Virus record (IMG/VR): IMGVR_UViG_3300033072_001141
Location: 17,794-81,793 of that record
Direction: 5' to 3' (one strand)
DNA from: a virus
Lineage: Duplodnaviria > Caudoviricetes
Length of the DNA: 64,000 nucleotides
Shown here: piece after piece, positions 662-40,459 of the stretch
Position numbering within the stretch: the stretch's first letter is position 1
How the letters are laid out: every line of letters starts with the position of its first letter
Made by a program: the position numbers and the translations under genes
The notes under the pieces: generated by a model
Seen by the model: only the letters and a program-made list of their open reading frames with translations
The model's database searches: none
What the model was told of the DNA's origin: nothing

Positions 662-1395
662 TTCGCGCGGCGCGCGGGCTTCTTGGGGGCTCGACCGTCG
701 CCGCTCTTGATCTCGCCGTCGTCGGCGAAGACCCGGAACGTCCCTGACCGCTGCCCGTTGTTCACGTCCGGCGGTGCCGAGTTCGGGCTGGTCGATCCTC
801 CGCGCTGGGACGAGGTCCTCACGGCGAAGTCGATCCCGAAGCGTTCACTCATGGCGCGCGCGGGGACCGGCACGCGGCCCTCACGAAGAGAGCGGATGAG
901 CGATCCCAGCTCGGGAACCGCCCTGTTCGCCGCCGCCGCCTCCAGCCTGCTGACCCAGCCGCGCCACTCCGTCCACTGCTCGTCGGTGGACTCGAACGCC
1001 GGCACGACGATGCGGTGCTGAACGAAGCTCTGGAGAAGGTCGATGAGCTTGTCGGTGGCGGGCCCGCGCCTCCAGCGCCCCGCCTCCTTGACCGCCCTGC
1101 CCGCCACCTCCGCGAGCCGCGACACCCACCGGAGCCAGTCCACCTCCGGGTCGGAGGTGGCCGTGTCGCGCTCCATGAGCGCCGAGAGCCGCACGAACGT
1201 CCTCGACTCGCCCTTCTGGCCGGCCGCCACGATCTCCTTCGCGGACATCTTCCGGTCGTCGTCTGGAACGCCGCACGCACGCTTGAGCGTGCTGAGCGCG
1301 ATGGCGATAGCCTGCTTCTGCGGCCTCCCGGCCTTCATCTCAGTAGAGATGTTGCGGCTAACAGCGCTGGCTACGCACGACTTGTCAAGCGGCAC
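658..1395 (-). CDS. Phage protein with 'NISTEMKAGRPQKQAIAIALS' N-terminal motif, possibly virion-associated
   Basis: GTG start after GGGGAGG RBS; N-terminal motif recalled from many phage hypothetical proteins. Confidence 0.7.
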   Translation of the reverse strand: MPLDKSCVASAVSRNISTEMKAGRPQKQAIAIALSTLKRACGVPDDDRKMSAKEIVAAGQKGESRTFVRLSALMERDTATSDPEVDWLRWVSRLAEVAGRAVKEAGRWRRGPATDKLIDLLQSFVQHRIVVPAFESTDEQWTEWRGWVSRLEAAAANRAVPELGSLIRSLREGRVPVPARAMSERFGIDFAVRTSSQRGGSTSPNSAPPDVNNGQRSGTFRVFADDGEIKSGDGRAPKKPARRAK

Positions 1396-2002
1396 GGCGG
1401 ACCTCCCCCTTCTGGTTCAGTTCACGGATGTTGGCGATGATCTTCGTCCGTGCTTCAAACTTCTCTTGCCCGATCGGGCCGCCGTTCGCCGCGATGTCGT
1501 CGAACTCGACCACCAGTTCGGCCTGCCTCTTCTTGACCACGAGCATTGAAGCGACCGCATCGAGCAGCCGACGCGCCTGCGCCGACGTGACGGTCCACTG
1601 CCAACTTGTCTTCCACTTCTCGTGGGTCTTCTTCTTGCGACAGACGTGACCACCGATCTTCCGCTTGAGCCACTCGACGAGGGGATAGCTGGTGTTGGTG
1701 ACGGTCACGCGGAGCTGCGCTTTGGCTGCGTTGCCCCAAGTGAACCCAACGCATCCCTCTCCGTCGATGATGCCGGCGATGTAACCGCGCTCCGCGTCCG
1801 AAAGGACCAGCGGTCCAAGCCTGCGCCGCTGAGCGTTCACCCGCGGAACGCCAGCCTCCTTGAGAGCCGCAGACACCGTCGCGTCACCCACTCGCTGATC
1901 CTTGGCGATCTTTCGGATCGACCACCCGGCGCGGTAAAGATCCACGATCCGACCACGCCGGTCGTTGGCCATGTGCTCAATGGCGCTCTTATCCAGCGGC
2001 AC
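1385..2002 (-). CDS. LAGLIDADG homing endonuclease with N-terminal HTH
   Basis: 'GYIAGIIDGEGCV' motif; HTH-like 'WSIRKIAKDQRVGDATVSAALK'; start re-called at GTG 2002 after CAGGAGG RBS. Confidence 0.85.
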   Translation of the reverse strand: MPLDKSAIEHMANDRRGRIVDLYRAGWSIRKIAKDQRVGDATVSAALKEAGVPRVNAQRRRLGPLVLSDAERGYIAGIIDGEGCVGFTWGNAAKAQLRVTVTNTSYPLVEWLKRKIGGHVCRKKKTHEKWKTSWQWTVTSAQARRLLDAVASMLVVKKRQAELVVEFDDIAANGGPIGQEKFEARTKIIANIRELNQKGEVRRAA

Positions 2003-2234
2003 GTCGAGCCTCCTGACGGAGCTTGGCCATGTACTCCTTGACCTGGTCGGATCCGTTGCGCTCGATGTAGTCGCTGACCGCCCGCGAGAGGATGTCGCCG
2101 GGCTCGCACTTCTCATCGACCGCCTGGAGCCCGAGCACGTCCCAGACGGAACGCGAGATGAGCATCATCATGGCGTCTCCGCCACGTGTCACCTCGCGTT
2201 CGAGGGGGGTCTCGACTGGTTGGGCCTTCGCCAC
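1989..2234 (-). CDS. Small hypothetical protein, possible ribbon-helix-helix
   Basis: 81 aa; 'MLISRSVWDVL...GDILSRAVSDYIER' fits an RHH pattern. Confidence 0.5.
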   Translation of the reverse strand: MAKAQPVETPLEREVTRGGDAMMMLISRSVWDVLGLQAVDEKCEPGDILSRAVSDYIERNGSDQVKEYMAKLRQEARRAAG

Positions 2235-2275
2235 GCACCCGAATCTACCGGATGCCCGGCGCCCGGTCTACGCGA

Positions 2276-3055
2276 TCAGCGGTAGCCGCCCTGGGGGATG
2301 CGCGGCCTCAGGTAGGAGGGTAGGACCCTCGACCCGCGCATGTTCTTGCGGTCGTGGAACCGAACCCGGTTCCCGAACTGCACGACCTCCGCGAACTCCA
2401 GGCTGACCTCCAGGATGCGGGGCACGCCGTTCGGGAACCACGCCTCGTAGGTCACGTCGCACTGGGTCATGACGCACACGACGTAGTCGGATCCGTCGTG
2501 CCCGAGCCTGGTGTTCGGGAGGACCAGGATGGCCTTGGGAGGCTCGTAGGCCCGAAGGTCCGCGCCGTCGCCGTACGACGGGTAGGTGAAGTACCGGAGC
2601 CAGTTCACGGCCGACCGGATGTCCATGTCCCTGGTGCCCTTCTGGATGGCCGTCAGGAGGGACACGTCGGCGTACGGGTCGTCACGCCCCGAGGTCTCGT
2701 CGGGGGGTGCCGTGTCGGTCGTGAAGACCGCCTGGAAGGAGATCCGGCGCTCGCCGCCGTGGGTCCACTGGTAGATGGGATGCGACCCGCCAGGGATCGA
2801 CCTCGGGTTCCACTCGGCGCCCCGGCTGTCCGTCAGGCTCTCGGGCCAGTATTGCAGCGCCAGGTAGGTGTTCCTGGCCGTCTCGAACGAGTCGAACGTC
2901 GAGAGGTCACCTGTCGGCGCGTCGGCGAAGTCGTTTGCCCACGGCACCGTCTCGCCCGGGGCCGTGTCCATCGCTCCGATGAGCGCCTGAGCCAGGCGCG
3001 TCTCGTGCTGGACGTTGAGCGCCTGGGTGATGATGTTCTGCGGGACGGCGACCAC
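2276..3055 (-). CDS. Tail tube initiator (CIS-tube / T4 gp48-54 / P2 gpU-like)
   Basis: 'LQYWPESLTDSRGAEW...PIYQWTHGGERRISFQAVF...PPKAILV...VCVMTQCDVTYEAWFPNGVPRILEVSLEFAE'. Confidence 0.7.
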   Translation of the reverse strand: MVAVPQNIITQALNVQHETRLAQALIGAMDTAPGETVPWANDFADAPTGDLSTFDSFETARNTYLALQYWPESLTDSRGAEWNPRSIPGGSHPIYQWTHGGERRISFQAVFTTDTAPPDETSGRDDPYADVSLLTAIQKGTRDMDIRSAVNWLRYFTYPSYGDGADLRAYEPPKAILVLPNTRLGHDGSDYVVCVMTQCDVTYEAWFPNGVPRILEVSLEFAEVVQFGNRVRFHDRKNMRGSRVLPSYLRPRIPQGGYR

Positions 3056-3058
3056 GGA

Positions 3059-3250
3059 TCACTCCGTGATGAGTCCGCCGCGGATCGCGAGCTGGCGGAG
3101 CAGCTCGTCCTTCTCGGCCTTGTTCATCGACTCGAACGTCTTCCCGCCCGAAGAGGGCGCGGGGGCGATCCGCTCGTTCATCCTGTCCGTCGCCGCGTCG
3201 GCCTGGGGGTCGATGCCGCGGACTGGGCGCGCAGACTTGGCCATGGTCAC
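3059..3250 (-). CDS. Hypothetical protein
   Basis: 63 aa ORF coupled to its neighbours. Confidence 0.5.
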   Translation of the reverse strand: MTMAKSARPVRGIDPQADAATDRMNERIAPAPSSGGKTFESMNKAEKDELLRQLAIRGGLITE

Positions 3251-3618
3251 TCCTCCTGCTTCTGCTTCTTCCGCCTGTTGATGATGAGCGTGACCTCGCT
3301 CCCGCGCACGGAAACCTGCGCCAGCACGAAGTGCCGCCGGAAGGTGCCGATGACGATGCCTCCGATGGGCATGTGACCTGGCTTCACGTGGTCGGCGAGG
3401 ACCTCGACCGCGTTGGTCTCCGTGTTCTGCGCCAGGTAGACGAGATGGTCCCCTTCGGCGGAGCAGTCCACTTCGTAGTCGTCGTCGAGGCCGAGGTCGC
3501 GCCCGTCGGCGATGAAGGAGCCCTTCTTCACGGAGAGAACGGACCCGTTCATGGACACGTCCATGTCCACTTCGAGTCCGGTCAACGCCGGAAGCACGCT
3601 TTCCACGATCTGCATCAC
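3247..3618 (-). CDS. Hypothetical protein (tail region)
   Basis: 123 aa ORF, 4-nt overlap with the downstream gene. Confidence 0.6.
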   Translation of the reverse strand: MMQIVESVLPALTGLEVDMDVSMNGSVLSVKKGSFIADGRDLGLDDDYEVDCSAEGDHLVYLAQNTETNAVEVLADHVKPGHMPIGGIVIGTFRRHFVLAQVSVRGSEVTLIINRRKKQKQEE

Positions 3619-3627
3619 GCGCTCCGA

Positions 3628-5787
3628 TCAGGTCTGAGTCCCGAACAGGATGAAGTTGAACGTCGCCATGCGGCCGGCCACATCGACGGCGAGGCCCGTC
3701 GCGGTGTCGAACATGGCGAAGTAGTGGGCCGTCGGCGACACCTGGACGTACGCGAAGGAGTACCCGAGCGTGTTGGTCGAAGCGAACCCGACCGCGTCAT
3801 CGATCCCCACTCCGGTGGTGACCACGATGATGTGGCTGCCGCCCGCGAGCTGCCTCACCTGGGCGAAGTTGTAGCCGCCGACCACCGTCATGAGCGTCGG
3901 GAACGCCACGCCGGTGTTGGACTTGCCCCACGACTTGCAGATGTTCTTGGCGTAGAGCGTGTTCTTCGCCGTCGTCGAAGTGGGGCTCGGGTTCGACTCG
4001 GTCGTGGACGGTCTGTAGAAGTGCAGCGAGCCGTTCTCCAGGAGCATCTTCCCGGCGCCCACCTCGTATCCGCCGGGCGAGAACGGCACGCCGCCGATGC
4101 CGGCTCCGCCGAGCATCATGTTCGCGTAGTCCCACCCACGCGGAGAGTCCACGGGGATCGACGTGAGCTGGTCGAGCCAGCCCGCCGCGACGGAGCTGAT
4201 CATGTTCATCTCGAACACGCCGAAGATCGTGTTGCAGAAGGAGAACTTCTGGGCCTTCTGCGCGGCTCCGCTGGTGTTGTCCGCGTACCAGAGCGCGTCC
4301 GCGACATCCCACCTCGCGTTGATCGTGAACTCGAACCCGATGGCGGTTCCGGCGGAGGTGATGTCCTCGAACCTCGTGAGGTAGAGGCGGCACCTCTCCG
4401 TGATGCCGCTCAGCGTGCCCTCGTAGATGAGGACGCGTCGATCGCCGGTCGTGTCGCCCATGACCAGACGGGGGATCTCCGACTGGTCGGTCCCGGTGAA
4501 CCCAGAGAACTCGATCTGACCGTTCAGCAGCACGTCGCGCCAGAGACCCTGGCCGCGCATGAGGCGGAACACCTGCTCGATGACCGGAGGCCCCGCGAGC
4601 TGCGACGCCTTCACCATGAGCGCGGTTCGCTGGAGGAACTCGGCCATGGTCGTCGGCGCGTTGCTGTCGAACCCACCGCCGGGGTTCAGCGCGAGGCTGT
4701 CGAACGCCTGGGTGTCGCCCAGGTGAGCCTGCTCGAACACGTCGTCGATCGGGTGGATGCCCTCCACCCAGCACTTCACGTCGTCGAAGTAGATGGACCC
4801 CGCCGCCAGCGACGCGCCGTTGTTGTTGATGCCGACGTGCGGGCGCATCCAGACCGCGCCGGTGGGCACCTCGACCACACCGTCCACGAGCGTGTACGCG
4901 AACGACCCCGACAGCGTGTTGTCCTCGATCCACACCGTGGAGAGGAGGGTCATGTCGTTGTCGTAGAACAGCAGGGCCATGCCCTGGTGACCGCCCACCG
5001 CGATGCCTGGCCACGCGTTGCCGCGCATCCTCAGGCGCCCGCGCACGTACATGCCCGCGGAGACGCGCACGCGACGGTCGTGGATCAGCAGCCGGTTGTT
5101 GACCACGCCTGGGGCCGGCTGTTCGAGCTGGAACTCGCGGGTCCCCTCGTACGGGGCCGTCGTCGAGATGCGGTAGTTCGGCGTGCCGAACCCCGTGCCG
5201 GTCCACCCCTCGATCCCGAAGAACGACGAGAAGCCGGCAGCGAACGCGCGCTCGAATCCGCCGTTCTTGATGATCTGGTGCCAGGAGTCCGGAGCACGAT
5301 CGTCCCACGCCATCCGACGCGCGGTCGGCGTGATGTTCGCCGCCGGGATCGGACCGACGCCAGGGACGACGACGCGCCCGAGGATGACGACGAACGGCGC
5401 CTCGGCCACCGGGGCCGTGAACAGCTCGGCCTGCGTGTAGGCGCGCCAGTTCACGACGGTGGTCGAGCCGATCGTGTAGCCGACGAAGAGGCAGATGTAG
5501 ACCGTCTGGCCAGCCAGCGCGGCGAGGTCGAGCGAGACGATGCCGTCCTGCCTGACGGTGAACTGGAGGTCGTTCACGTCCTGGTAGGAGTAGATTGAGT
5601 CGCCCTCGACCGAGTCGGGGACGATGTTGATGCCGAACCCGGCGCCGGTCGTCTGGAGCTTGCCGCCCCGAACGACGCCCGAGCCGACGAGGCCGAAGAG
5701 CTTCTTGTTCAAGCCCTGCGAGACGTAGGGCTCCTTGAATCGCACCTGCGCGATGGAGTCCCCGGGGTTGTCGAGCGTCGTCGGCAT
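3628..5787 (-). CDS. Tail fibre/receptor-binding protein with carbohydrate-binding-module-like domain
   Basis: 719 aa, beta-rich; 'IIKNGGFE...GW' CBM4/9-like start; position after baseplate genes. Confidence 0.6.
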   Translation of the reverse strand: MPTTLDNPGDSIAQVRFKEPYVSQGLNKKLFGLVGSGVVRGGKLQTTGAGFGINIVPDSVEGDSIYSYQDVNDLQFTVRQDGIVSLDLAALAGQTVYICLFVGYTIGSTTVVNWRAYTQAELFTAPVAEAPFVVILGRVVVPGVGPIPAANITPTARRMAWDDRAPDSWHQIIKNGGFERAFAAGFSSFFGIEGWTGTGFGTPNYRISTTAPYEGTREFQLEQPAPGVVNNRLLIHDRRVRVSAGMYVRGRLRMRGNAWPGIAVGGHQGMALLFYDNDMTLLSTVWIEDNTLSGSFAYTLVDGVVEVPTGAVWMRPHVGINNNGASLAAGSIYFDDVKCWVEGIHPIDDVFEQAHLGDTQAFDSLALNPGGGFDSNAPTTMAEFLQRTALMVKASQLAGPPVIEQVFRLMRGQGLWRDVLLNGQIEFSGFTGTDQSEIPRLVMGDTTGDRRVLIYEGTLSGITERCRLYLTRFEDITSAGTAIGFEFTINARWDVADALWYADNTSGAAQKAQKFSFCNTIFGVFEMNMISSVAAGWLDQLTSIPVDSPRGWDYANMMLGGAGIGGVPFSPGGYEVGAGKMLLENGSLHFYRPSTTESNPSPTSTTAKNTLYAKNICKSWGKSNTGVAFPTLMTVVGGYNFAQVRQLAGGSHIIVVTTGVGIDDAVGFASTNTLGYSFAYVQVSPTAHYFAMFDTATGLAVDVAGRMATFNFILFGTQT

Positions 5788-5799
5788 CTGCTTCTCCTA

Positions 5800-6417
5800 C
5801 TACCTCGGCGGCGAGAATACCGCATCCTTTGGATCCCACCCAGCCTTGAGCCGCGAGTGGATGGTGACCGCCTTCACGCCGGAGACCTCCGACCAGCCGG
5901 CCACGCACTTCGCGACCCCGTCGATGGTCAACATGACGTTCGACCGCCGGTTCCGCTGTTGCTGGCGCCACGTCTCCCACCGAACGTTGCCAGGTTCGTA
6001 GCCCTTGTCGTTGTCGATCCTGCCGACCGAAAACCCACTCCCTGGACGCCGACCAATGTGCTCCAGGAACAGCGTGAAGCCGCCCTCGCCAATCCATTCA
6101 GCGCACACGCCGATCCCACGATCGTGGTAGTCGGCGCGATCACGGTGCCCCGGCTTCGTGCGAGCCAGCATCGCCTGCCAGGCTGCGTACTCCGCTGACC
6201 GTCTGTCCTTCGAGCTTCCTCCAGACTCTCCGTGTCCCACCGACTTGCATCTGGTGCATGAAACCCTCTGCGGAAGCTCGTACGACCGCATCATCTTCTC
6301 GGTGCCACAGTCGCATCGGCAGAGTTGACGTGTGACGCCGCTGGATCCATCGGGAAGTGACACCACCGTCCACTTCCCAAACCGCGCTCCGACCGGATGC
6401 ACAACCCTGTGTCGCAT
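5800..6417 (-). CDS. HNH/His-Me finger homing endonuclease
   Basis: 'GKWTV...CRCDCG', 'YAAWQAMLAR', 'RGIGVCAEW', 'SVGRIDNDKGYEPGNVRW..QQRNRRSN'. Confidence 0.85.
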   Translation of the reverse strand: MRHRVVHPVGARFGKWTVVSLPDGSSGVTRQLCRCDCGTEKMMRSYELPQRVSCTRCKSVGHGESGGSSKDRRSAEYAAWQAMLARTKPGHRDRADYHDRGIGVCAEWIGEGGFTLFLEHIGRRPGSGFSVGRIDNDKGYEPGNVRWETWRQQQRNRRSNVMLTIDGVAKCVAGWSEVSGVKAVTIHSRLKAGWDPKDAVFSPPR

Positions 6418-6440
6418 CCAGGCGTTGTAACTCAGTCAGA

Positions 6441-6452
6441 ACGATAGCACAA
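6441..6452 (-). promoter_or_regulatory. Putative extended -10 promoter TTGTGCTATCGT upstream of the HNH gene
   Basis: TGnTAnnnT match in an AT-richer gap; the same TTGTGCTA occurs at 34331-34342. Confidence 0.45.
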
Positions 6453-7157
6453 CTAGAAGACAATCTGGATTATGTGATTGAGCTGGACGGCGCCCGTCTT
6501 CGTCTCCAGATCGAACGTGATGTAGGCGACCATCACGCCGTTCGAGTCGAACAGACCCAGCTCGAAGAACTCGGGAGGGTTGCCGAGCTGATCGAGGTTC
6601 GCCTCGGCCGCGAGCACGATGGCGTCGATCTCCGTGATCGCCGGCAGCGACGAGAACAGGGTCACGTCGGCGGCGAGGAGCGTCTTGCGGAAGGTGAAGA
6701 GGGGCTCATCCGCCTTCCTCACCGATCGGCCCGCCAGCGTCGCACCGCCGTACCCGGCCGTCAGAGTGACCTGGAGGTTGTTGTCCACCGTGAGGATCTG
6801 ACCCCAGGTGTCCACCTCCGTGCCGGGAGTCCCGGCCGACCCGGGGGACACGCTCGGAGTGGGCCCTGGCTTGATCCAGTCGCCGACCGCGAGGTCCGCG
6901 ATGAACGACGTGCCCACCCCGGTCACGATCGGTGAGCCGTTCGTGAACGTCGCCGTGCCTCCGCCGGCCAGCTCCGCTCCTTCGGATTCGAGGTCCACGC
7001 GCGTCGCGGCGGGAGCGACGGGCTGCTTCGGAGGGACATCGACGAAGCCGCCCTCGCCGATCTTGAAGAAAGTGATCTCGGCCTGCGTGTCGCCGCGGGC
7101 GAAGACGCGCGCGAGGACGGTTCGCCAGACGTTGGGGATGATGCCCTGGACCGCCAC
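6453..7157 (-). CDS. Tail collar/fibre attachment protein (P2 gpH N-terminal-like)
   Basis: 'ITFFKIGEGG...FFELGLFDSNGVMVAYITF..TKT' pattern; follows the gpI-like gene. Confidence 0.65.
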   Translation of the reverse strand: MAVQGIIPNVWRTVLARVFARGDTQAEITFFKIGEGGFVDVPPKQPVAPAATRVDLESEGAELAGGGTATFTNGSPIVTGVGTSFIADLAVGDWIKPGPTPSVSPGSAGTPGTEVDTWGQILTVDNNLQVTLTAGYGGATLAGRSVRKADEPLFTFRKTLLAADVTLFSSLPAITEIDAIVLAAEANLDQLGNPPEFFELGLFDSNGVMVAYITFDLETKTGAVQLNHIIQIVF

Positions 7158-7178
7158 TTCTTCTGCTCCTGCTCCTGC

Positions 7179-8747: not shown

Positions 8748-8750
8748 CGG

Positions 8751-9041
8751 TCAGTCCTGCACCAGTTCGCGGATCTTGACGATCGAGTGCGAGGAGATGG
8801 CGCCGGTGTAGTTCGGCGTCGTCTCCGTAGAGAGCGGGGTCGGATCGACCTCGGTCTTCTCGTAGTAGCACCAGCCGAAGGTGCCCGCGTCCCAGACCCG
8901 CTGGAGGTAGATGAGCGACGGCTCGGGCCACGGATCGAAGCCGCCCGCCGTGGGCGCACCGGTCGTCGTCGTCGCCACCGTGTAGAGCGGCTGGAACGTG
9001 CCACCGGTGAGCGCCTGCGTGTTGGTCCAGACGACGGCCAT
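8751..9041 (-). CDS. Small virion structural protein, hypothetical
   Basis: 96 aa, Thr/Gly-rich, within the tail cluster. Confidence 0.55.
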   Translation of the reverse strand: MAVVWTNTQALTGGTFQPLYTVATTTTGAPTAGGFDPWPEPSLIYLQRVWDAGTFGWCYYEKTEVDPTPLSTETTPNYTGAISSHSIVKIRELVQD

Positions 9042-9045
9042 GGTG

Positions 9046-10131: not shown

Positions 10132-10140
10132 GCTCGCTCC

Positions 10141-11124: not shown

Positions 11125-11134
11125 CGCGCTCTCC

Positions 11135-12856: not shown

Positions 12857-12872
12857 CGCTCACTTCCCGTCT

Positions 12873-15493: not shown

Positions 15494-15545
15494 GGTGCCG
15501 CTGCTCCTTCACTCCCTGGACCAGGGAGCACTGCTTCTTCGACGA

Positions 15546-15914
15546 TCACGCGCTGAACGAAGTGCTCGCCCGTCGGATGACTCCTACCACCTCGAAGGTC
15601 ACATCGACCAGGATCTCCACCCCGTCCGAGGTCTCGCGCTCGGTCACCTCGACGAAGAGGATGCGCGCCCGCGGCTCTCCAGCCGAGATCGCGCGGCGAA
15701 CTTCGTGGTCTACCCGCGCCCGAAGCAGGGGCCCGGAGTTCTCGAAGATGAAGCTGTAGGTGTCCGACCCTGCGTCCGGTCGCATGACCCTGGATCCACG
15801 GGGGGTCTGGAGGATGCGGGCGATGTTGTCCGCGACCACGTCCTCGTCGGTCCTCGGAGCTGGCAGCCCGAACGCCGAACGGGTGAACGGGAAGGCAATC
15901 CCTCTGATCGTCAC
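15546..15914 (-). CDS. Baseplate wedge/sheath initiator (gp25/gpW-like)
   Basis: 'VADNIARILQTPRGSRVMRPDAGS...FIFE...AISAGEPRARI'. Confidence 0.9.
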   Translation of the reverse strand: MTIRGIAFPFTRSAFGLPAPRTDEDVVADNIARILQTPRGSRVMRPDAGSDTYSFIFENSGPLLRARVDHEVRRAISAGEPRARILFVEVTERETSDGVEILVDVTFEVVGVIRRASTSFSA

Positions 15915-16596: not shown

Positions 16597-16608
16597 GGCG
16601 CCCTAAGT

Positions 16609-22500: not shown

Positions 22501-23156
22501 TCAGGAAGCCTCCTGACCGCGTCTGCCCCGAACCCAAACGCCTCGCCGATGGCCGTCACACGATCCACCAGCGCCGACGCGCCGTCTGCCCCCAGTTCGT
22601 AGCCCTCGGAGAGCCTGGTGAGCAGGGATGCGAGCTGCTCGCCGGAGAGGATGTTCGCCTGGATGCTGCCCGCCACGGTGCGCAGCGAGATCCCGAAGTC
22701 GTCGAGGCTGTTGCCGCTTCTGGCGATCCCGGTGACCGCGGAGATCATCTCGTTCGCGTCGATGTCGAGCGAGTAGGCGAGGCCGGAGATCTCGCCACGC
22801 ATCCCTTCCACCTGGTCACGCAGCGGACCAAGTCCGACCGTCGCTCGTCTCCACGTGTTCGAGAACTCGACGCCGAACGACTCCAGACCCGTGTCGCTCG
22901 GGTCGATGCCAGCGCGATCGGCCAGGCCCTCCAGCGAGTCGCCGATCCGATCGAGCTGGGCAAGGCTGATCGCTCCGATCGCGTTGCCGAGCCGCTGGAG
23001 CGAGCTGGATGCACGGCCCGCCTCCTCCACGGAGGTGGCAACACGGTCCATGCCCTCGGCGACGTTGCCGGCGGCGCGAGACGCTCCCGCGTCCCTGGCT
23101 CCGAAGACGAAGCCGAGACCCAGGAGGCGCCCCATGCCAGAGCCAACTCCAGCCAT
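19590..23156 (-). CDS. Tape measure protein
   Basis: 1188 aa, helical, central hydrophobic segments, C-terminal coiled coil; lies between tail chaperone and LysM genes. Confidence 0.8.
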   Translation of the reverse strand: MAGVGSGMGRLLGLGFVFGARDAGASRAAGNVAEGMDRVATSVEEAGRASSSLQRLGNAIGAISLAQLDRIGDSLEGLADRAGIDPSDTGLESFGVEFSNTWRRATVGLGPLRDQVEGMRGEISGLAYSLDIDANEMISAVTGIARSGNSLDDFGISLRTVAGSIQANILSGEQLASLLTRLSEGYELGADGASALVDRVTAIGEAFGFGADAVRRLPEIISAADPVLARFSGLSIEQTTESVTRLSLAMQRYLGGSFEDASQAAIGVFTGLADVRGAMTELVTGTGSELSPLLEELAIASGDVDGAMNMLMSDPIRFAESLRGLVSTMDRSSPAYNRLQTALAQMPEQFQFLVTGGEEASAALEAATQPVGEFEGAFNRMARSGAGTARTFSESMDRLRDGFETSLNSITRHQRGMNMDRVMMQRQREAYDRVAGTVRNLASRDGGLGLLTRAFLNVRRYGMQGFVESVTEVTDRYLPSLSSHLRDALPFVGELGSAFAEIAPTLVPMLLAMNQLGIGSAFRWLRSGASSIVGFLGPWGLLVAGVAAGAGLITYYWEDISNLFESIDWAGIAHEAAQSFMGGLEWLAAGAFNIGAWIRSVDWVSVGQTIGDGFRQAFEFVANLFTGEFNGDIANFFADAFDMPADEIVPTILGLLGDIFSETIGQIPTIARGILGGLFGEEVVDSVIEGIASLPSRMMDQVNGILGIMLWPFEQVFGSDQISMLFHQGGVMAIFYDFYDFVVATFEVMGDAWDDVIAPMAEIAWDVTSEVGSAFADLWSETIQPILDLVGEWWTVDFVDGQEGAQEQIISTGDSFRMMWQRFIRPALYAFVRSQADAINRFRGWIPVFQSVARFAVRSFFAINSAIRNFRTTFEGARDTLAAGWQLIGTRVRRFFTQPILQAGDSFMTIFENIQMTVAGLRISFLQIIQSLVSGIQTAFNAIPEPLRSAMGLVGDSLDAAVSSLNAEVTREESRITAARAEIENERRERAAAVAAQDAEVVAAEAALAAVVAENRARAARERSEAAAAMTRELAGIDSFGERLDSTLERAAERLGAIGTDVQDLEGALPDVATTTTETGTTVVTPVTEDDDTRPPVAARTVEDAAGGAGGGADIGAPRTRARARMEAAAAAEEATGRERARDIAREMVVSAFGPEAVRQLGSALARGGGPTRARGSRAGGSGEEMTR

Positions 23157-23632
23157 TACGAGACCCTCCCAAAGACCGCTTCGGCGTCAGGCCATCCACG
23201 AATCAAACGCCCCCACACGCGCTTCGGATCCACGCCCGCTTCTTCGGCCCATTCGACTAGCAGCGCCGTCCTTCCTCCAATGGTCAGCGACCGACTGTTT
23301 CGCCGGTTCCGGTTTTGCTCGACGGACGTGGCCCACCGCACGTTGCCCGGCTCATACCCACGGTTCACGTCGATGCGATCGAGCGAATGCTTGGAGCTGG
23401 GGCGCCTACCGATGTGCGCAAGGAACGCCGCAAACCCGTCCGTGCCACGCCATTCGTCTGCGACCCGAACACCGCGTCCGCCGTAGAGCGCCCGCTTGGG
23501 GTGGTTCTCGTTGTGGCATCGGGCCTGCATCTCCGACCCGTACATGAGGTTGCCGGACTGGATCCGCGGCGACGTGGACAGGACGGACCACTGCCCGACC
23601 GAAGACGGAACCGCCTTGCGATGTGCAGGCAT
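23156..23632 (-). CDS. HNH/His-Me finger homing endonuclease
   Basis: 'YGGRGVRVADEW..FAAFLAHIGRRP..SLDRIDVNRGYEPGNVRWAT..QNRNRR'; paralogue of 5800-6417. Confidence 0.85.
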   Translation of the reverse strand: MPAHRKAVPSSVGQWSVLSTSPRIQSGNLMYGSEMQARCHNENHPKRALYGGRGVRVADEWRGTDGFAAFLAHIGRRPSSKHSLDRIDVNRGYEPGNVRWATSVEQNRNRRNSRSLTIGGRTALLVEWAEEAGVDPKRVWGRLIRGWPDAEAVFGRVS

Positions 23633-23671
23633 CTACCGTACCTCCATTCCGCCGCCGACACCACCAGCCAC
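23633..23671 (-). pseudogene. 12-codon mini-ORF resembling the tape-measure 5' end (MAGGVGGGMEVR*)
   Basis: GTG GCT GGT GGT GTC GGC GGC GGA ATG GAG GTA CGG TAG; its stop abuts the HNH ATG; tape measure begins MAGVGSGM. Confidence 0.6.
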
Positions 23672-32872: not shown

Positions 32873-33508
32873 TCAGAGCCGCGCGTCGTCGTTCCTCGTC
32901 ACGGCGCTCACGATCTCGACCGCCGCGGAAGTTGCGCGCGCGGCCACCGGGCTGACCGTCGCCAGCGTCAGTTCGGCCACATGCTCTGGCTGGACCTCAA
33001 GCTCCTGGATGGACACGTCCGAGGAGGTCGCGTCGAAGTCGGAGCCCGCCTTGTACCTCGTCGGCAGGCAGTCGTAGAGGATCCACCCGCGGCCTGGAGT
33101 TCGTAGTGCTGCCTGGAGGAACGCCGTGTCGGGGAACGAGAGATTCGAGCCTGTGACCTGCGACTGCACCTTCCAGCCGAGGAAGTGGACGATCACGAGC
33201 GTGCGCCGAATCGGCTGCCGCCCGACGATGGCCCCGGTGATCCAGTTGTAGAAGTCGGAGTCGTAGAAGCGCGCCCCCCTGGACATCGAGACCGGACCTG
33301 CCTCGGCCTTCTTCACGATCCGGCGCTTGTACTCCCAGTTCCCCGGTTGCACATCGCGCAGCTCGACGGAGATCTCCGGAGCGGTGCAGGCCGAGAAGCC
33401 GAGCGCCGGATCGAAGATGCTGAGCAGCGAGTTCCCGCTGGGTCCCGACGCATCGAAGACCCAGAACGGGAACGCCTGCATCATGTCGAGAAGCCGCGCT
33501 CTCGCCAA
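32873..33508 (-). CDS. Tail tube protein, paralogue 2 (T4 gp19-like)
   Basis: 'GFSACTAPEISVE...GNWEY...VSMSRG..FYNW...W.LYDCLPTRYKAGSDFDATSSDVSIQELEV'; TTG start. Confidence 0.85.
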   Translation of the reverse strand: MARARLLDMMQAFPFWVFDASGPSGNSLLSIFDPALGFSACTAPEISVELRDVQPGNWEYKRRIVKKAEAGPVSMSRGARFYDSDFYNWITGAIVGRQPIRRTLVIVHFLGWKVQSQVTGSNLSFPDTAFLQAALRTPGRGWILYDCLPTRYKAGSDFDATSSDVSIQELEVQPEHVAELTLATVSPVAARATSAAVEIVSAVTRNDDARL

Positions 33509-33511
33509 AAC

Positions 33512-34324
33512 CTACCGTCCTTCCGAGAAGATACCGAACTTGCGTTCGCAACGGATGCCGAGGCTGTCAGCGTAGATTGCAAGCCCAAGCGCGTCCACGT
33601 TCTGACCGAAGAACCGGAGCTGTCCGATGCCGGTCTTCAACATCGACCTCGTACCCTTCGCACCATACTCCATCGCGAGTGCCTGAGCGTCGTCGAGCAT
33701 CCGAACGCTCTTCGATGTCAGCGCGCCAACCAGGTACGACCTCGTGCGTCGCTTGTCCGCCCAGCGGTTCCACGACCCATCGGAGTCCCAGAGTCCGCGA
33801 AGGAAGTGGGTGCGGTGGCCGCCGGCCTGGGGGATGCGGATCCTCTCTGCCTTGTTGCCGTAGCTGAGGCCCAACATCTCCTCGGCCAGCTCCACCAACG
33901 TGATGCCGCCGAGGTAGACGCTGACGCAGCCCTTGCGCTCGTAGAGGGAGCCGCCGCCGCTGAGGTCGCGAACACGCTCGCACACCTCCCGCGTCCCGCA
34001 CAGATGGACCGCCCTCCGCTCGATCCACCCGTCGCCGGAGATGAGGCCCCATGCCCACGCGCTGGCCGGCGTCCACGTCGCCCAAAACTCGCTCTTGAAC
34101 GGCAAGACGCGGTTCATGCGCCCGTTGGCCGAGCGGTAGTCCTCCGGCGTCCGAAGAACCCCGCGCGCCTCTAGGAAGCGCCTTGCACGGTCGCGAGGGA
34201 ACCCTGTGACCCTCGATGCCGCCGCGCTGGAGCCCAGTTCCTCGTAGGCACGAAGGAGCGCTGACTCCATCTCTGGAGTTACCTCACGTCGGTTCCAGGC
34301 AGCGGCGCCGACTACGAACACCAC
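33512..34324 (-). CDS. Two-motif LAGLIDADG homing endonuclease with N-terminal HTH
   Basis: 'AWAWGLISGDGWI' and 'HFLRGLWDSDGSW'. Confidence 0.85.
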   Translation of the reverse strand: MVFVVGAAAWNRREVTPEMESALLRAYEELGSSAAASRVTGFPRDRARRFLEARGVLRTPEDYRSANGRMNRVLPFKSEFWATWTPASAWAWGLISGDGWIERRAVHLCGTREVCERVRDLSGGGSLYERKGCVSVYLGGITLVELAEEMLGLSYGNKAERIRIPQAGGHRTHFLRGLWDSDGSWNRWADKRRTRSYLVGALTSKSVRMLDDAQALAMEYGAKGTRSMLKTGIGQLRFFGQNVDALGLAIYADSLGIRCERKFGIFSEGR

Positions 34325-34346: not shown

Positions 34347-34622
34347 CTAGGACTGGGCGACGATCTCCATGGCGCGCGGAAGCGGATCCGAGCACCGAGG
34401 GAAGTGCATGGCGCTGGTCTCCGGGTACGCGGCCGTGCCGAACTCGGCGACCATCACGCCGTCTCGCCATGCGCGAGACCGGCCCGGGTACTTCCGGTCC
34501 TTTCCGCCGGGCACCGTCACAGTGATGATGTCCACGGTGACCTCGTCGGCCTCGATCACCTCTCCCGATTCGAGTCTGACCTGCATGAGCGCCTCCATGT
34601 CGAGCAGCCGCGGACGAGCCAC
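34347..34622 (-). CDS. Small protein whose first 9 codons match tube paralogue 2 (MARPRLLDM)
   Basis: Direct sequence comparison with 33482-33508. Confidence 0.6.
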   Translation of the reverse strand: MARPRLLDMEALMQVRLESGEVIEADEVTVDIITVTVPGGKDRKYPGRSRAWRDGVMVAEFGTAAYPETSAMHFPRCSDPLPRAMEIVAQS

Positions 34623-34652
34623 AGGGAGACCCCCTACGGGAGGATCCCGTGG

Positions 34653-35222: not shown

Positions 35223-35240
35223 GTGCCTGCTCCTTCTTCG

Positions 35241-35789: not shown

Positions 35790-35802
35790 GGTCTGAACCG
35801 TA

Positions 35803-36585: not shown

Positions 36586-36626
36586 CTGCGTCTCCGATCA
36601 GACCGCCCCGAGGAGCGGGCCAGAAA

Positions 36627-37046: not shown

Positions 37047-37070
37047 GTTCGCGCTCTCCTCCGAGGGGGT

Positions 37071-37391: not shown

Positions 37392-37417
37392 TCGGTCTTC
37401 TCCTGGTCAGCGGTCGA

Positions 37418-39913
37418 TCAGCCGGTCGAGCTGAACTTCTGCTGGATGCGGAAGATGATGAACTCGCCCGGCTTGTTGGGCGCGATGTAGATGTCGCAGA
37501 TGACCTCGCCCGCCTCCTCGTTGTCCGCCGTGTTGTTCGACTCGTCGCAGATGACCGAGACGGCGTCCGTGAAGGTGGTGCCGGCGAAGTAGCCCTGGTT
37601 GAAGAGGTTCCGGAGGAACGACTCGACCGAGACCTGGATGCGCTGCCGGAGCGACGCGCCCACGTTCTCGAAGACGAAGCCGTGCGTGCCGTTGTAGATG
37701 CTGCTCTTGAGGAAGTTGAAGAGCCGGCGCACCTGGACGTAGCGGAAGTCGTCCGGCGGGTTCTCCAGCGTGCGCGCGCCCCAGACCGCGCGGCCGGTCT
37801 GCGGGGTGTCCACCAGGGCGTTGACCTGGCTCTGGAAGAACGTGTCGATCTCGGCGAACTCCAGCCGGCGCTCCAGGCCCTCCGAGAAGAGCAGGCGTCC
37901 GTCCTCGGTTCCCGCGGGGGCCTTGGCGACGTTCTTGTTCGTGTCCGTGCGCGCGTACACGCCCGCGACGTGTCCGATCGGCGGGATGTTGGCGCCGCGC
38001 TCCGTGAACGGATCGGTCACGCGGATGTACGGGTAGTAGAGCGCGCCGTAGCTCGACGAGATGCCGAGCGTGAAGCGCCTCCAGTCGCGCACCTGCTGGG
38101 GCGTCATGCCCGGCGGGCTCGCGAGGATGATGAACCACTTCTGGTTCGTCTCGGCCTCGGCGATCTGGTCGCTGGCCATCGTCACGTCGCCGGCCGCGTC
38201 CGGGATGCCGACGTTCAGCAGCTCGTCGGTGGTGAGCAGCGCGTACATGCCGCGCCGATCGGACTTGAGGGCCGGGCTGGTCATCTCGGCGCGACCGATG
38301 CCCGCCACACCGTCCGACCCGCCGGTGAGGGCGTCGGAGGTGGCCGTGTCCGCCGGGGTGACACGCGACGAGATCTGGATGATCGAGCCGGGGCGCGCAC
38401 CGGTCGGGACCGCGAGGTTCGAGGTCTCCGCCTCCGAGACCGCCGCCACGGTCCGGAAGGCGATCTTGCCGGACGTGTAGTTGACCCGGTTGTAGCCGGT
38501 GGGGGGCGCCGGATCGACATCGCCGACCAGGTTGCCGTTGCCGTCGTCCGTGATCGTGCGCGAGACGCCGGCCACGTCGGTGTAGGTGATCGAGACCGAG
38601 CCCGGCTGCACCGGCGTCGCCAGCGCGTCCGTGCGGAACCCGACCGGGATCGACGGGAAGCCGTCCGGGTCGGCCGCCGCGGTCGAGCCCCAGTTCTGGT
38701 TCGAGCCGTTGCCCGAGCCGCCGGAGCGGGTGCGCAGCTTGCCGTTGAGCGACGACGGGATGACCGGCTCGTTCGCGGGATCGACCAGCGTGATGAGGTC
38801 CGACCCCTGGGTGGGATCGTTGATGGCGGTGATGACGTAGTCCGGGTCGGACGGGTCCGTCATCGAGAGGTTCAGGAAGGTCTCCTGGACCTCGCCGTCG
38901 AGGAGAACCTGCACGTCCGCGCGCGAGTAGGTCGCGGTGGAGCGCGTGAAGGAGTCCTCGTTGCCCCGGACCTGGACCTCCAGGTCGTTGCCCCACGCGC
39001 CCTTCGAGATCGGATCGATGTCGAAGGCGCGGCACGTGTAGGCCGCGAGGACCGAGTTCCCGCGGGCCGGCGTCGCGGGGACCGTGGTGGTGAACGCGTA
39101 GGCGCCCGTCGCGTAGTCGATGGTGCCGGGCGCAGCGAGGTCGGCACCGGTCAGCGCGCCAGATCCATCGTCCGTGATCGTCGAGAGCGCGCCCTCCGGC
39201 GTGTAGCTCATCGTGATCGCGGTCGCGTTGTCCGGAGCCTGCCCCGTCTCCGCCGACAGCGCCCAGTGGCCGGTCTTGTAGTCGATGAAGCCGCGCGTGT
39301 CGCCCGCGCCGTCCTTGAGGATGCCGTCGAAGGCCGGGTCCGTGTAGGTGTACGGCGCGGCGGCGACGGTCGTCGTCAGCGTGACCGTGCCAGGGACGAT
39401 CTTGGCTCCGCCAGCGACGGATACACGACCGGCGAAGTCGAGCAGGACGCTGTCCGTGGCCGGGGAGTTGTTGGTGGCCGCCGCGACGACCGGCGTGCCG
39501 AGCCGGCGCCAGGTGATCGACACCGACGACGCCTGGACCTGCGGCGCCTGCGCGAGAGACCCGGCGAACGCCACGACCGTTCCGTCGCCGGTCTCGATGG
39601 CCTCCTCGGTCACGTCGCTGGTGATGAAGCCGTCGGCCGCCACGGCGTCCGAGGCGACCACGCGCACGACGTACGCACGCCGACCGCCGTTCGCGAAGAA
39701 CGCGAAGAGGTGCAGCGGCACGCCGCTCTGGTCGGTGAAGTCGCCGAAGGTCCGCGTGAACTGCTCGAACGACGACACCAGGACGGCCTCGTCGGTCGGA
39801 CCGCGGAGCGTGAATCCGACGGTGCCGAAGGTGCTCGTGGACACGCCCGTGATGGGGGCGACGCCACGACGCCGCTCCTCGACGTAGACGCCCGGGTGCA
39901 ACCTTTCGACCAT
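37418..39913 (-). CDS. Contractile tail sheath protein
   Basis: 'HPGVYVEE...STGTFG..RGP..AVLVSSFEQF.RTFG..FFANGG.RAYVVRV'; C-terminal 'PPIGHVAGVYARTD..VAKAPAG..VWGARTL..YVQVRRL..FE'. Confidence 0.95.
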   Translation of the reverse strand: MVERLHPGVYVEERRRGVAPITGVSTSTFGTVGFTLRGPTDEAVLVSSFEQFTRTFGDFTDQSGVPLHLFAFFANGGRRAYVVRVVASDAVAADGFITSDVTEEAIETGDGTVVAFAGSLAQAPQVQASSVSITWRRLGTPVVAAATNNSPATDSVLLDFAGRVSVAGGAKIVPGTVTLTTTVAAAPYTYTDPAFDGILKDGAGDTRGFIDYKTGHWALSAETGQAPDNATAITMSYTPEGALSTITDDGSGALTGADLAAPGTIDYATGAYAFTTTVPATPARGNSVLAAYTCRAFDIDPISKGAWGNDLEVQVRGNEDSFTRSTATYSRADVQVLLDGEVQETFLNLSMTDPSDPDYVITAINDPTQGSDLITLVDPANEPVIPSSLNGKLRTRSGGSGNGSNQNWGSTAAADPDGFPSIPVGFRTDALATPVQPGSVSITYTDVAGVSRTITDDGNGNLVGDVDPAPPTGYNRVNYTSGKIAFRTVAAVSEAETSNLAVPTGARPGSIIQISSRVTPADTATSDALTGGSDGVAGIGRAEMTSPALKSDRRGMYALLTTDELLNVGIPDAAGDVTMASDQIAEAETNQKWFIILASPPGMTPQQVRDWRRFTLGISSSYGALYYPYIRVTDPFTERGANIPPIGHVAGVYARTDTNKNVAKAPAGTEDGRLLFSEGLERRLEFAEIDTFFQSQVNALVDTPQTGRAVWGARTLENPPDDFRYVQVRRLFNFLKSSIYNGTHGFVFENVGASLRQRIQVSVESFLRNLFNQGYFAGTTFTDAVSVICDESNNTADNEEAGEVICDIYIAPNKPGEFIIFRIQQKFSSTG

Positions 39914-39916
39914 GAC

Positions 39917-40459
39917 TCAGCCTCCTGCGACGTTGGCGAGCCTGAAAGCCCGCTGATCCTGGATCCGACCCACCAGCGACACGACGTTGTCTACATGCTC
40001 AGGGAATCGACGAATCCATCCCTTTTTGCCGTGGAGGTTCTGGTGGATGAACACCACGAGCTGCCTCCAGAGAGCGTAGTCGAGCGACTTCTTGCTCTGG
40101 AGCGGAAAGCGATCGAAGTGGGGAATGACCTTCTCGACGAGTGAGTCGATATCCTCCACGCGCAGCGACACGGACGGGTTGGCACCTGGAACCGAAGCCC
40201 TGCGTTTGGACGAAACGGGCTTCTCCCTGACGGTGCCGGCCCCGAAGTACGCGACCAGCTTGTCGAGCGTCCGTCTGTCGTCGGCGCGAAGCTGGACTTG
40301 CAGTCCTACGTACTGATTGAAACACCGGTGGATCCGTCCCGACTGGGCCAGCTTCTCCTTGGCGGAGTACGAGGCGTAGAAGCATCCCTCGCCATCGATC
40401 AGGCCGGTGACCCACCAGCCGAACGACGGATCGTCGGGAAGCCTCAGACGCTCGACCAT
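39917..40459 (-). CDS. Single-motif LAGLIDADG homing endonuclease
   Basis: 'WWVTGLIDGEGCFY', 'VIPHFDRFPLQSKKSLDYALW'. Confidence 0.9.
   Translation of the reverse strand: MVERLRLPDDPSFGWWVTGLIDGEGCFYASYSAKEKLAQSGRIHRCFNQYVGLQVQLRADDRRTLDKLVAYFGAGTVREKPVSSKRRASVPGANPSVSLRVEDIDSLVEKVIPHFDRFPLQSKKSLDYALWRQLVVFIHQNLHGKKGWIRRFPEHVDNVVSLVGRIQDQRAFRLANVAGG

Follow-up and report, generated by a model that had tools for sequence, protein, structure and literature searches.

Homing-endonuclease cassettes that probably replace the first codons of tail genes without splicing in an uncultured tailed phage

We found that five endonuclease cassettes of an uncultured phage (Caudoviricetes) lie between two copies of the start of the gene that follows them, and these are probably homing-endonuclease cassettes that need no splicing and were inserted into phage tail genes at a depth of 4 to 13 codons. 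At its left end, such a cassette would border on the ribosome site, start, and first codons native to the host gene, which would now open the cassette's first ORF, which in four cases would be the nuclease itself, lacking any other start. At its right end, it would supply a new ribosome site within the nuclease's last codons, a start codon touching or overlapping the nuclease stop, and a respelled copy of the displaced codons, so that the host protein would be made whole. We base this reading on the anatomy of the cassettes, empty alleles in relatives, the movement of the respelled copy together with the insert, a bias toward in-frame fusion, and the patchy occurrence of nuclease orthologues at one and the same codon across diverged phages.

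Results

Gene starts are duplicated around endonuclease genes

The window analyzed here is the whole 64,000-nt stretch at positions 17,794-81,793 of IMGVR_UViG_3300033072_001141, and relatives were drawn from IMG/VR and metagenome scans. A six-frame search and the DNA itself confirmed all five N-terminal twins listed by a first-pass annotation, each on the minus strand (Table 1), and a sixth twin of 13 codons lies on the same contig just beyond the window edge. The shuffle test proposed with that annotation gave an excess of neighbor matches that excludes chance, with exact prefixes of at least four residues in 3 neighbor pairs compared to 0.07 expected (65 curated starts, column shuffles). 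A gene set with several starts per gene proved to be a noisy null and was replaced by the curated single starts and a blind stop-to-start scan, which recovered four fused pairs across the whole contig and only ORFs of 24-47 codons on the control strand. The MTIR peptide alone is weak, with 4 other occurrences in the window, and this pair is upheld because of synteny. The window also holds adjacent paralogous genes with similar N-termini (starts 11124 and 10131).

Table 1. Endonuclease genes, their neighbors, and duplicated gene starts in the window
Feature	Position	Strand	Match or remark
245-aa gene, unknown function	658..1395	-	PHROG 2423
LAGLIDADG_3 + helix-turn-helix endonuclease ORF, 205 aa from GTG 2002	1385..2002	-	Pfam; PHROG 5046 E=4e-26
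MPLDKS twin	starts 2002 (upstream) / 1395 (downstream)	-	
HNH endonuclease ORF, 205 aa, intergenic spacer	5800..6417	-	PHROG 374 E=2e-38
Second HNH_3 endonuclease ORF, 168 aa	14987..15493	-	Pfam PF13392; junctions compared with G001
Baseplate wedge gp25-like gene	15546..15914	-	Pfam PF04965
HNH_3 endonuclease ORF, 170 aa	15911..16423	-	Pfam PF13392 E=9e-14
MTIR twin	starts 16423 (upstream) / 15914 (downstream)	-	
Tape measure gene, 1188 aa	19590..23156	-	PHROG 58 E=1e-20
HNH endonuclease ORF, 158 aa, own GAGG site and ATG	23156..23632	-	PHROG 3377 E=2e-39
12-codon stub	23633..23671	-	native tape-measure start + 8 codons, 3 cassette codons, TAG
Tape-measure twin, 8-9 residues with one indel	starts 23671 (upstream) / 23156 (downstream)	-	
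Tail tube gene (gp19-like), TTG start	32873..33508	-	Pfam PF06841
LAGLIDADG_3 endonuclease ORF, 270 aa, N-terminal helix-turn-helix region	33512..34324	-	Pfam PF14528 E=4e-6
91-aa ORF	34347..34622	-	first 9 codons (34596-34622) = native tail-tube 5' end
Tail-tube twin, 8/9 residues	starts 34622 (upstream) / 33508 (downstream)	-	
Tail sheath gene	37418..39913	-	Pfam sheath domains
LAGLIDADG_1 endonuclease ORF, 180 aa	39917..40459	-	Pfam PF00961 E=8e-15
MVERL twin	starts 40459 (upstream) / 39913 (downstream)	-	

All of the inserts are endonucleases by Pfam and PHROG. As proposed earlier, both LAGLIDADG and HNH enzymes take part (LAGLIDADG_1, LAGLIDADG_3, HNH_3, and a second HNH type), with family matches above or near the cut-off for PF00961, PF14528, and PF13392, as looked for in a free-standing homing endonuclease, and with E values from 1e-26 to 1e-39 for the PHROG HNH families. 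In every cassette, the end of the nuclease ORF overlaps the next gene's start or lies no more than 5 nt from it, and a GGAGG-like site sits in the last codons of each endonuclease ORF, in line with the Shine-Dalgarno-like ends described previously. Seven of the eight independent junctions continue in frame (P = 0.003), and an alternative start codon is absent in four nucleases. A GAGG motif shared by the left ends was tried as a candidate and rejected, as it occurs at only 3 of 9 junctions and at two of those is the cassette's own ribosome site.

The first-pass annotation had each endonuclease cassette open with the N-terminus of the next gene. This holds for the cassettes, but only three of the five nucleases are fused to the captured start: the tape-measure copy is a 12-codon stub and the tube copy heads a 91-aa ORF, with the nucleases starting separately. 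Capture of the start is not universal, since these two cassettes keep a ribosome site and ATG of their own. Among the targets, which had been taken as essential virion genes, the 245-aa protein lacks a known virion role.

Differences between the two copies are mostly silent, as had been claimed. Codons for the same residue are spelled differently in 25 of 36 cases, compared to a background of 32.5% taken from window and G001 orthologues (binomial P = 6e-6; seven pairs, two of them from relatives), and Arg codons switch between CGN and AGR in 6 of 7 cases versus 22%.

A relative without the endonucleases carries single gene starts

G001 is a complete 186-kb relative that is ~77% identical to the window; it lacks all of these endonuclease genes and has no HNH_3 or LAGLIDADG matches. 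The prediction that an empty allele joins the upstream copy to the gene body was borne out in this endonuclease-free genome at all five sites. Here and at the sixth site outside the window, G001 carries the ribosome site, start, and first codons only once, in a copy that runs from the window's upstream flank and upstream copy directly into the gene body. For both the tube and the gp25 site, alignments of the left and right flanks to G001 overlap by 13-14 nt, with 13 nt at gp25, and at the outside-window site the upstream copy equals G001 at 27/27 positions and the downstream copy has diverged. Presence and absence at the same site among collinear relatives, also looked for in a free-standing homing endonuclease, was thus found with G001 as well as with the pair G004/L007 and at the tube locus, where 39 of 40 other loci are empty.

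Megablast of deposited phage genomes gave no matches to 41 kb, tblastn with the sheath protein gave distant matches only (at most 32% identity), the gp25 scan yielded 3 loci only, and the metagenome scan found no near-isogenic empty partner of the window itself. Three HNH genes of G002 sit in a low-GC3 stretch that is not comparable with the tail module.

Anatomy of the cassettes

The sheath-site nuclease ORF opens with the ribosome site and ATG native to the sheath gene, has no other start codon upstream of its LAGLIDADG motif, and has as its first 14 nt (40446-40459) the native sheath 5' end; it is absent from G001, whose single sheath start matches the upstream copy at 14/14 nt. The start and first 5 codons of the sheath gene (39899-39913) form the replacement copy, in which 4/15 nt differ from the upstream copy, all silently, and the ribosome site of the gene sits in the last codons of the endonuclease ORF. 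This nuclease is intact in G003 too, and a comparison of nuclease and flank conservation gave no signal of recent transfer between the window and G003. Since the nuclease is less conserved than its flanks, these alignments suggest vertical descent rather than recent movement.

At the gp25 site, the HNH_3 nuclease carries the gp25-like gene's native start and 4 codons as a fusion and has no other start codon ahead of its conserved N-terminal motif, while the gp25-like gene has a GTG start that overlaps the endonuclease stop and a second copy as its first 4 codons. The nuclease is absent from G001, and an orthologue (46% identical) with its own stub occupies the same site in G008. The second HNH_3 nuclease, 42% identical to the first, uses the native ribosome site and GTG of the next baseplate-wedge gene with 0 codons duplicated, and its TAA overlaps the new ATG of that gene. 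The ORF of the nuclease ahead of the 245-aa gene is a fusion that opens with this gene's native start and 5 codons, and the upstream copy at 2002 also contains the overlapping stop of the preceding gene. The first 6 codons of the 245-aa gene (1378-1395) are the replacement copy, with the start 11 nt inside the end of the endonuclease ORF, and G001 has one copy at this start.

In the tape-measure cassette, the TAG of the stub overlaps the endonuclease ATG, the TAA of the HNH gene overlaps the tape-measure ATG, and the first 8 codons of the tape measure gene are the replacement copy. This HNH gene is absent from G001, which has a single tape-measure start, and is 50% identical to the HNH ORF at 5800-6417. 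The latter has its own start and no duplication, the conventional free-standing arrangement, and is also absent from G001. Aside from the cassettes, four endonuclease genes of the contig have ordinary intergenic arrangements.

The left flank of the tube site aligns with G001 through the upstream copy. The remaining 82 aa of the 91-aa ORF gave no family match in Pfam or PHROG, and this ORF contains an in-frame internal ATG at 34586 with its own GAGG site. The LAGLIDADG_3 ORF has its own GTG start in a frame other than that of the 91-aa ORF, and shares 38% identity with the G004 endonuclease that occupies this tube codon. The first 9 codons of the tube gene (33482-33508) are the replacement copy, which departs from the upstream copy at 6/27 nt and in one residue.

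A near-isogenic pair differs by insert and respelled start

G004 and the L007 contig have 2 mismatches in 10,948 nt (99.98% identical) and contrast by an 846-nt LAGLIDADG insert at tube codon 9 and 7 silent changes, which fall in the 21 nt right after the insert and are followed by 100 identical nt. Since insert and respelled copy distinguish the pair together, the respelled start travels with the cassette. The silent changes at the tube site lie 9-24 nt from the junction and leave the junction-proximal bases unchanged, a pattern that fits badly with simple protection of a 22-bp site centered on the insertion point. In G004, the nuclease has a second, older tube-like stub directly after the first, and in the distant relatives at the same sites (G004 tube, G008 gp25) both copies carry residues of their own lineage.

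Discussion

We infer that the nuclease would cut endonuclease-free alleles near the junction and that the cassette would be copied in by break repair. Divergence between the copies may give protection from renewed cutting, from deletion through recombination between repeats, or from both, and gene starts may be favored because they are conserved and require the least duplication.

The same anatomy would result if the duplication were a by-product of one-ended repair, where the recipient's broken left end is joined to the cassette without homology and the right end is copied from the donor; this account, which we regard as possible but somewhat unlikely, differs on adaptation, taking the downstream copy as a natural allele of the donor lineage and the upstream stub as serving no required function. 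It draws on the sheath gene, where the 5' end of the endonuclease-free L101 is closer to the 'recoded' copy than to that of G001, and where L101 and L004, both endonuclease-free, naturally carry GAA AGA at codons 3-4, as in the window's downstream copy. Given the resemblance to L101, the downstream sheath copy may not be a purpose-made recoding but an allele of natural or foreign origin, and we count the L101 sheath end against our main reading as well. One-ended repair would also accommodate the GAGG site and ATG that the tape-measure and tube cassettes hold just past the junction, the older second stub of G004, which is expected if every jump adds one, and the reading of an inserted gene end in fungal mitochondria as horizontally acquired (PMC3630166). 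On the other hand, the in-frame bias of the junctions and the four nucleases without another start point to use of the captured start, the AGA AGA spelling of G004's replacement copy occurs in 0 of 40 tube loci, and silent divergence between copies is twice that between the window and G001.

It is very unlikely that gene starts were duplicated in tandem first, unrelated to endonucleases, with nuclease genes settling between the copies later. No relative (G001, 40 tube loci) shows two copies of a start with no endonuclease separating them, the neighbor-pair test and the blind scan confine start duplications to endonuclease boundaries, and insert and respelled copy jointly set the isogenic pair apart; nothing direct favors this order of events, the nearest point being the adjacent paralogues noted above. 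Group I introns or inteins with in-frame nuclease ORFs, whose splicing restores the host protein, are more improbable still. Mitochondrial group I introns typically have nuclease ORFs that continue the frame of the preceding exon, and LAGLIDADG_3 matches in 746-1118-aa open frames of relatives resemble true inteins elsewhere, but a stop codon closes every nuclease ORF at or before the host gene start, leaving no frame open on both sides as an intein needs. The intron reading was dropped since the Rfam search gave no family, and thus no ribozyme, at the gathering threshold in the 64-kb window. Because the downstream host gene is complete, with a ribosome site, a start, and all first codons of its own, splicing would leave residues present twice instead of restoring them. 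That short N-terminal peptides resemble each other by chance in a GC-rich genome has next to no probability: MTIR-like tetrapeptides do occur 5 times in the window, and when each gene is allowed several candidate starts, ~1% of random gene pairs share prefixes of at least four residues, but the neighbor-pair excess over shuffles, the blind scan versus its control strand, and above all the synteny of the single-copy G001 alleles and the isogenic pair refute it.

Beyond the splicing-free cassettes themselves, we see an even chance that a wider account is true as a whole, namely that 5'-end replacement is a general, convergent colonization of the first codons of essential phage genes by unrelated endonuclease families, in which the native start would drive the nuclease, the respelled copy would be the immunity determinant, and tandem stubs like those in G004 would record successive jumps between diverged hosts. 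If so, at least six such cassettes in one phage's tail module would rewire translation of the most abundant virion proteins. The splicing-free cassettes would show homing endonucleases entering coding sequence without an intron or intein, at the place where the need for duplication is smallest, and would account for the orphan mini-ORFs and unusual starts (TTG, GTG) of phage structural genes; annotators should be warned that such genes have two candidate starts. They also suggest a link between nuclease expression and late, strong translation starts. Precise target-site predictions come from the empty alleles of G001 and L007, and pairs of empty and occupied alleles would let enzymologists define new LAGLIDADG and HNH specificities.

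Our literature search found no phage report of endonuclease cassettes replacing gene starts. Like intron- and intein-encoded homing endonucleases, the window nucleases belong to the same enzyme families and are inserted in conserved coding sequence of important genes, but they have no ribozyme or protein-splicing context and need no splicing. Bonocora et al. 2011 reportedly described the T4 mobA and gene 60 cassette as a gene split with ribosome hopping over a 50-nt gap. That cassette, like ours, places an endonuclease in coding sequence together with its own splicing-free device for saving the host product, but the device in the window is a replacement ribosome site, start, and first codons.

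Compared to the seg and mob genes of T4-like phages, the cassettes share HNH-type nucleases outside introns and a patchy distribution among relatives (PMC2988022). Starts of free-standing endonuclease genes in these phages often overlap the stop of the preceding gene, which led to the suggestion of translational coupling (PMC2988022). T4 endonuclease genes are intergenic or split a gene (mobE in nrdA, mobA in gene 60), whereas those in the window are inserted within the first codons and a duplicate 5' end keeps the host gene whole. Since the review of T4-like homing contains no word beginning with 'duplicat', duplication goes unmentioned there (PMC2988022).

The closest likeness is to the mORFs of fungal mitochondria, which form gene hybrids in Allomyces macrogynus atp6 and in Glomus atp6, atp9, cox2, and nad3, and whose mobility is attributed to cutting of ORF-less alleles (PMC3630166). 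In both systems, an intron-free endonuclease ORF (LAGLIDADG or GIY-YIG in mORFs) lies within a protein gene with one terminus duplicated, the insert's copy has diverged while the native copy matches close relatives, and the ORF is often in phase with its host (PMC3630166). In mORFs, it is the C-terminus that is duplicated in mitochondrial DNA, and the copy in use comes from the insert and precedes the nuclease, with the native end left idle after it (PMC3630166). In the window, by contrast, the N-terminus, ribosome site, and start are duplicated, with the native copy starting the cassette ORF and the host gene relying on the copy from the insert; these cassettes occur in a phage, and HNH enzymes are also involved. 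Since the N-terminus and translation start are duplicated and the genome is that of a tailed phage, the cassettes are, by analogy, mORF-like in their apparent workings and fall outside the mORF class, of which they appear to be a 5'-end mirror image.

Nuclease cassettes between twinned gene starts

The window (66% G+C, all genes on the minus strand) covers positions 17794-81793 of a viral contig from IMG/VR that is 81.8 kb long and an estimated 43% complete. The tail module of a distant T4-like myovirus occupies window 1-41 kb, and we found no close relative of the window among deposited phages. The first-pass annotation had proposed that five endonuclease cassettes, LAGLIDADG and HNH alike, open with a copy of the next gene's N-terminus. 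We found all five N-terminal twins, and family matches for both enzyme classes among the five inserts (see table), but the tape-measure and tube nucleases start separately from the copied N-terminus. The tape-measure twin is a 12-codon mini-ORF whose closing TAG overlaps the nuclease's own ATG, which has its own GAGG site, while the tube twin heads a 91-aa ORF without a family match, with the LAGLIDADG ORF starting 22 nt later in another frame. The 82 residues after the captured tube stub (34347-34595, minus; GC3 0.81; no Pfam or PHROG match) possibly belong to a passenger gene that the cassette carries, and this stretch is absent from the homologous tube-site cassette of the relative G004. 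Every twin-site nuclease ORF stops at most 5 nt from the next gene's start, or overlaps it, and a GGAGG-like site lies inside its final codons, matching the Shine-Dalgarno-like ending that had been described. GC3 of the five inserted genes is 0.76-0.82, compared with 0.85-0.96 in their neighbours.

Endonuclease inserts and tail genes in the window
Feature	Position	Strand	Twin starts, upstream/downstream	Basis
LAGLIDADG_3 + helix-turn-helix endonuclease	1385-2002	minus	2002/1395	family match
HNH_3 endonuclease	15911-16423	minus	16423/15914	family match
Second HNH type endonuclease	23156-23632	minus	23671/23156	family match
LAGLIDADG_3 endonuclease	33512-34324	minus	34622/33508	family match
LAGLIDADG_1 endonuclease	39917-40459	minus	40459/39913	family match
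Sheath	37418-39913	minus		
Tube paralogues (n = 2)	tail module, 1-41 kb	minus		
Tape measure	19590-23156	minus		
Baseplate hub	tail module, 1-41 kb	minus		
gp25-like wedge	15546-15914	minus		
gp6-like wedge	12873-14987	minus		
Fibre-like genes	tail module, 1-41 kb	minus		

A sixth twin lies outside the window on the full contig (G000 4332/3817), where an HNH_3 ORF and the next gene open with a 13-codon twin. The HNH_3 gene at 14987-15493 captures a start only, using the wedge gene's native ribosome site and GTG with no codons duplicated, and its TAA overlaps a new ATG supplied to the wedge gene. The HNH gene at 5800-6417 occupies an ordinary intergenic position with its own start, as do three more HNH or endonuclease VII-like genes in G000 1-17793. 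The 11 endonuclease-like genes of the contig thus comprise six duplicated starts, one start-only capture and four conventional genes. One HNH gene of G000 with its own start (L041:14463-15086, minus) directly follows the preceding gene's stop; its final residues and stop region show a short, weak resemblance to the C-terminal end of that preceding gene in the relative G001, a possible case of C-terminal duplication as in mitochondria.

Exact prefixes of at least 4 residues were shared by 3 neighbour pairs among 65 single curated starts, whereas 2000 column shuffles averaged 0.07 such pairs and never gave more than 2, a result in favour of the pattern by the shuffling check that the first-pass annotation had suggested. 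As a peptide alone, MTIR was not significant; synteny carries that pair. An annotation-blind scan of the whole contig for ORFs that end no more than 30 nt from a second start whose N-terminus resembles their own yielded the four fused pairs, one tandem-paralogue pair and two weak matches, while the control scan of the non-coding strand gave three ORFs only, of 24-47 codons. The tandem paralogues are adjacent 327- and 361-aa genes with similar N-termini (9046-11124, minus), unrelated to endonucleases.

Empty alleles in relatives

Relatives were retrieved by scans with the sheath and tube proteins. G001, a complete 186-kb genome with terminal repeats, is collinear with the window at about 70-82% identity and has no match to HNH_3, LAGLIDADG_1 or LAGLIDADG_3. 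Compared with G001, the window has seven insertions, and all seven are endonuclease genes. At all five twin sites, G001 holds a single copy of the ribosome site, start and first codons, whose left side aligns with the upstream flank and upstream copy of the window and whose right side aligns with the gene body, which is the junction that the first-pass annotation had predicted for an empty allele. Both at the tube site and at the gp25 site, the left and right alignments overlap by 13-14 nt in G001. For the sheath, G001 agrees with the upstream copy at 14/14 bases and with the downstream copy at 10/14; at the 2002 site, the upstream copy includes the preceding gene's overlapping stop codon, as does G001. 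For the sixth twin, G001's single copy equals the upstream copy at 27/27 junction-adjacent bases, and the downstream copy differs at nearly all wobble bases. Three other readings were rejected: an intron (no Rfam match at threshold in the window), an intein (a stop codon ends every nuclease ORF) and a duplication older than the insert (the two copies never occur together in a relative lacking the insert).

Where G001 encodes a membrane protein of about 180 aa, the window has a 7-codon mini-ORF (12855-12885, minus), which apparently consists of the first three and last four codons of the membrane-protein gene and keeps the stop-start overlap with the next gene.

Among 40 tube loci retrieved, 39 were empty and only G003 had an insert, a different 218-aa LAGLIDADG gene with no full upstream copy, adjoining a tube start spelled with AGG codons. 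That gene (L040:6666-7322; 94%-sheath relative) begins 4 nt past the preceding stop, so close that no intergenic spacer is left, and the greater part of the upstream copy is missing as well. In G006, a close relative (tube 83% identical), the tube gene is directly followed by an HNH_3 gene in the opposite orientation (L090:1135-1707), a third kind of arrangement in which start capture cannot occur. Elsewhere, HNH_3 genes with their own ribosome sites lie between a major capsid-like gene and the next gene in G008 and G010 (L088:1240-1806 and L089), with a lower-GC spacer that is promoter-like in look. LAGLIDADG_3 matches within 746-1118-aa open frames (G005:C1:6422-6667, G006:C1:160024-160236, G007:C1:63125-63370 and 73948-74160) probably represent inteins within large proteins encoded by this phage group.

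The respelled gene start belongs to the insert

Over 10,948 aligned bases, G004 and the near-isogenic contig of L007 show 2 differences; beyond this stretch, G004 carries an 846-nt insert at tube codon 9. The encoded LAGLIDADG_3 nuclease shares 38% identity with the enzyme at the tube site of the window. The upstream tube copy of G004 is identical to the empty allele, while the downstream copy has 7 changes in the first 21 nt, all silent; they affect the start codon and also switch CGN to AGA twice and TTG to CTG once. The following 100 nt are unchanged. Since lineage divergence cannot explain this difference, the respelled 5' end is part of the inserted DNA. The gp25 site of G008 is likewise occupied, by an HNH_3 gene that shares 46% identity with its counterpart in the window and has its own 5-codon twin, in which 4/4 non-start codons are respelled. 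The G004 and G008 twins encode their own lineage's N-terminus, not the window's.

Across seven pairs, 25/36 same-residue codons were spelled differently, compared with 32.5% at conserved residues of 33 window-G001 orthologue pairs (P = 6e-6), consistent with the earlier remark that the differences are mainly synonymous; the twin copies are therefore about twice as diverged as two genomes roughly 77% identical. Arginine codons switched between CGN and AGR in 6/7 cases (background 22%) and leucine codons switched class in 3/6 (background 8%).

Codons 3-4 of the sheath gene read GAA AGA in the endonuclease-free L101 (80% identical in the sheath) and in L004, just as they do in the window's downstream copy. 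Because they share this spelling, the downstream sheath copy may be a natural allele from another lineage, or a leftover after nuclease loss, rather than a newly selected spelling. The sheath 5' end of L101 (L101:8001-8030), a 191-kb groundwater phage, has 3 differences from the window's replacement copy and 7 from G001; it may represent a naturally resistant allele, a donor lineage or the trace of a lost cassette.

Probable use of the captured start

The reading frame continued from the captured start at 7/8 independent junctions (P = 0.003). In the nucleases of the sheath site, the gp25 site and the twin outside the window, no ATG, GTG or TTG follows the captured start ahead of the first conserved motif, and the sole alternative in the 2002 nuclease is an internal ATG that is poorly placed. 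Each of the tape-measure and tube cassettes retains a ribosome site and an ATG of its own, a few bases past the junction; here, the tape-measure stub is predicted to be translated and then terminated, and the tube stub to be read through in frame.

Proposed route of insertion and known systems

Insertion anatomy, empty sites, carriage of the respelled copy and the patchy distribution of orthologous nucleases at fixed codons emerge from the sequence comparisons, and the structural interpretation of the cassettes is supported. Going by established homing biology, the nuclease would cut empty alleles near the junction, and repair from an occupied genome would copy the cassette in, with homology from the flank and native copy on the left and the gene body on the right and the heterologous respelled segment carried inside the insert. 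Divergence between the copies should lower deletion by repeat recombination and may block re-cutting. At the tube site, the silent changes lie 9-24 nt left of the junction and junction-proximal bases are unchanged, which argues against a simple 22-bp site centred on the junction; as a guess, the extra helix-turn-helix domain could extend recognition leftward.

As to origin, the cassette structure would arise in a single step from one-ended repair if the left end were joined without homology, and this would also explain a second, older tube-like stub in the G004 LAGLIDADG ORF. This stub directly follows the captured one (L028:2036-2100), agrees at 6/8 residues with tube N-termini from other lineages (L047 among them) and is preceded by ATT at the ATG position. 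It looks like the relic of an earlier host, which suggests that stubs may accumulate over successive jumps.

A T4 review (PMC2988022) and an ICP1 survey (PMC10448857) describe intergenic or gene-splitting nucleases and translational coupling, with no duplicated gene start, and we found no phage report of duplicated-start cassettes in literature coverage largely outside subscription journals. The value of the window lies in the density of the pattern, with six cassettes of four nuclease types in one tail module, and in the clean empty alleles available for testing them against. The nearest described design is a fungal mitochondrial mobile endonuclease ORF that inserts near a gene's 3' end, brings a diverged replacement C-terminus and strands the native one (PMC3630166). 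The phage cassettes are its 5'-end mirror image, with the additional feature that the stranded native start would drive the cassette.
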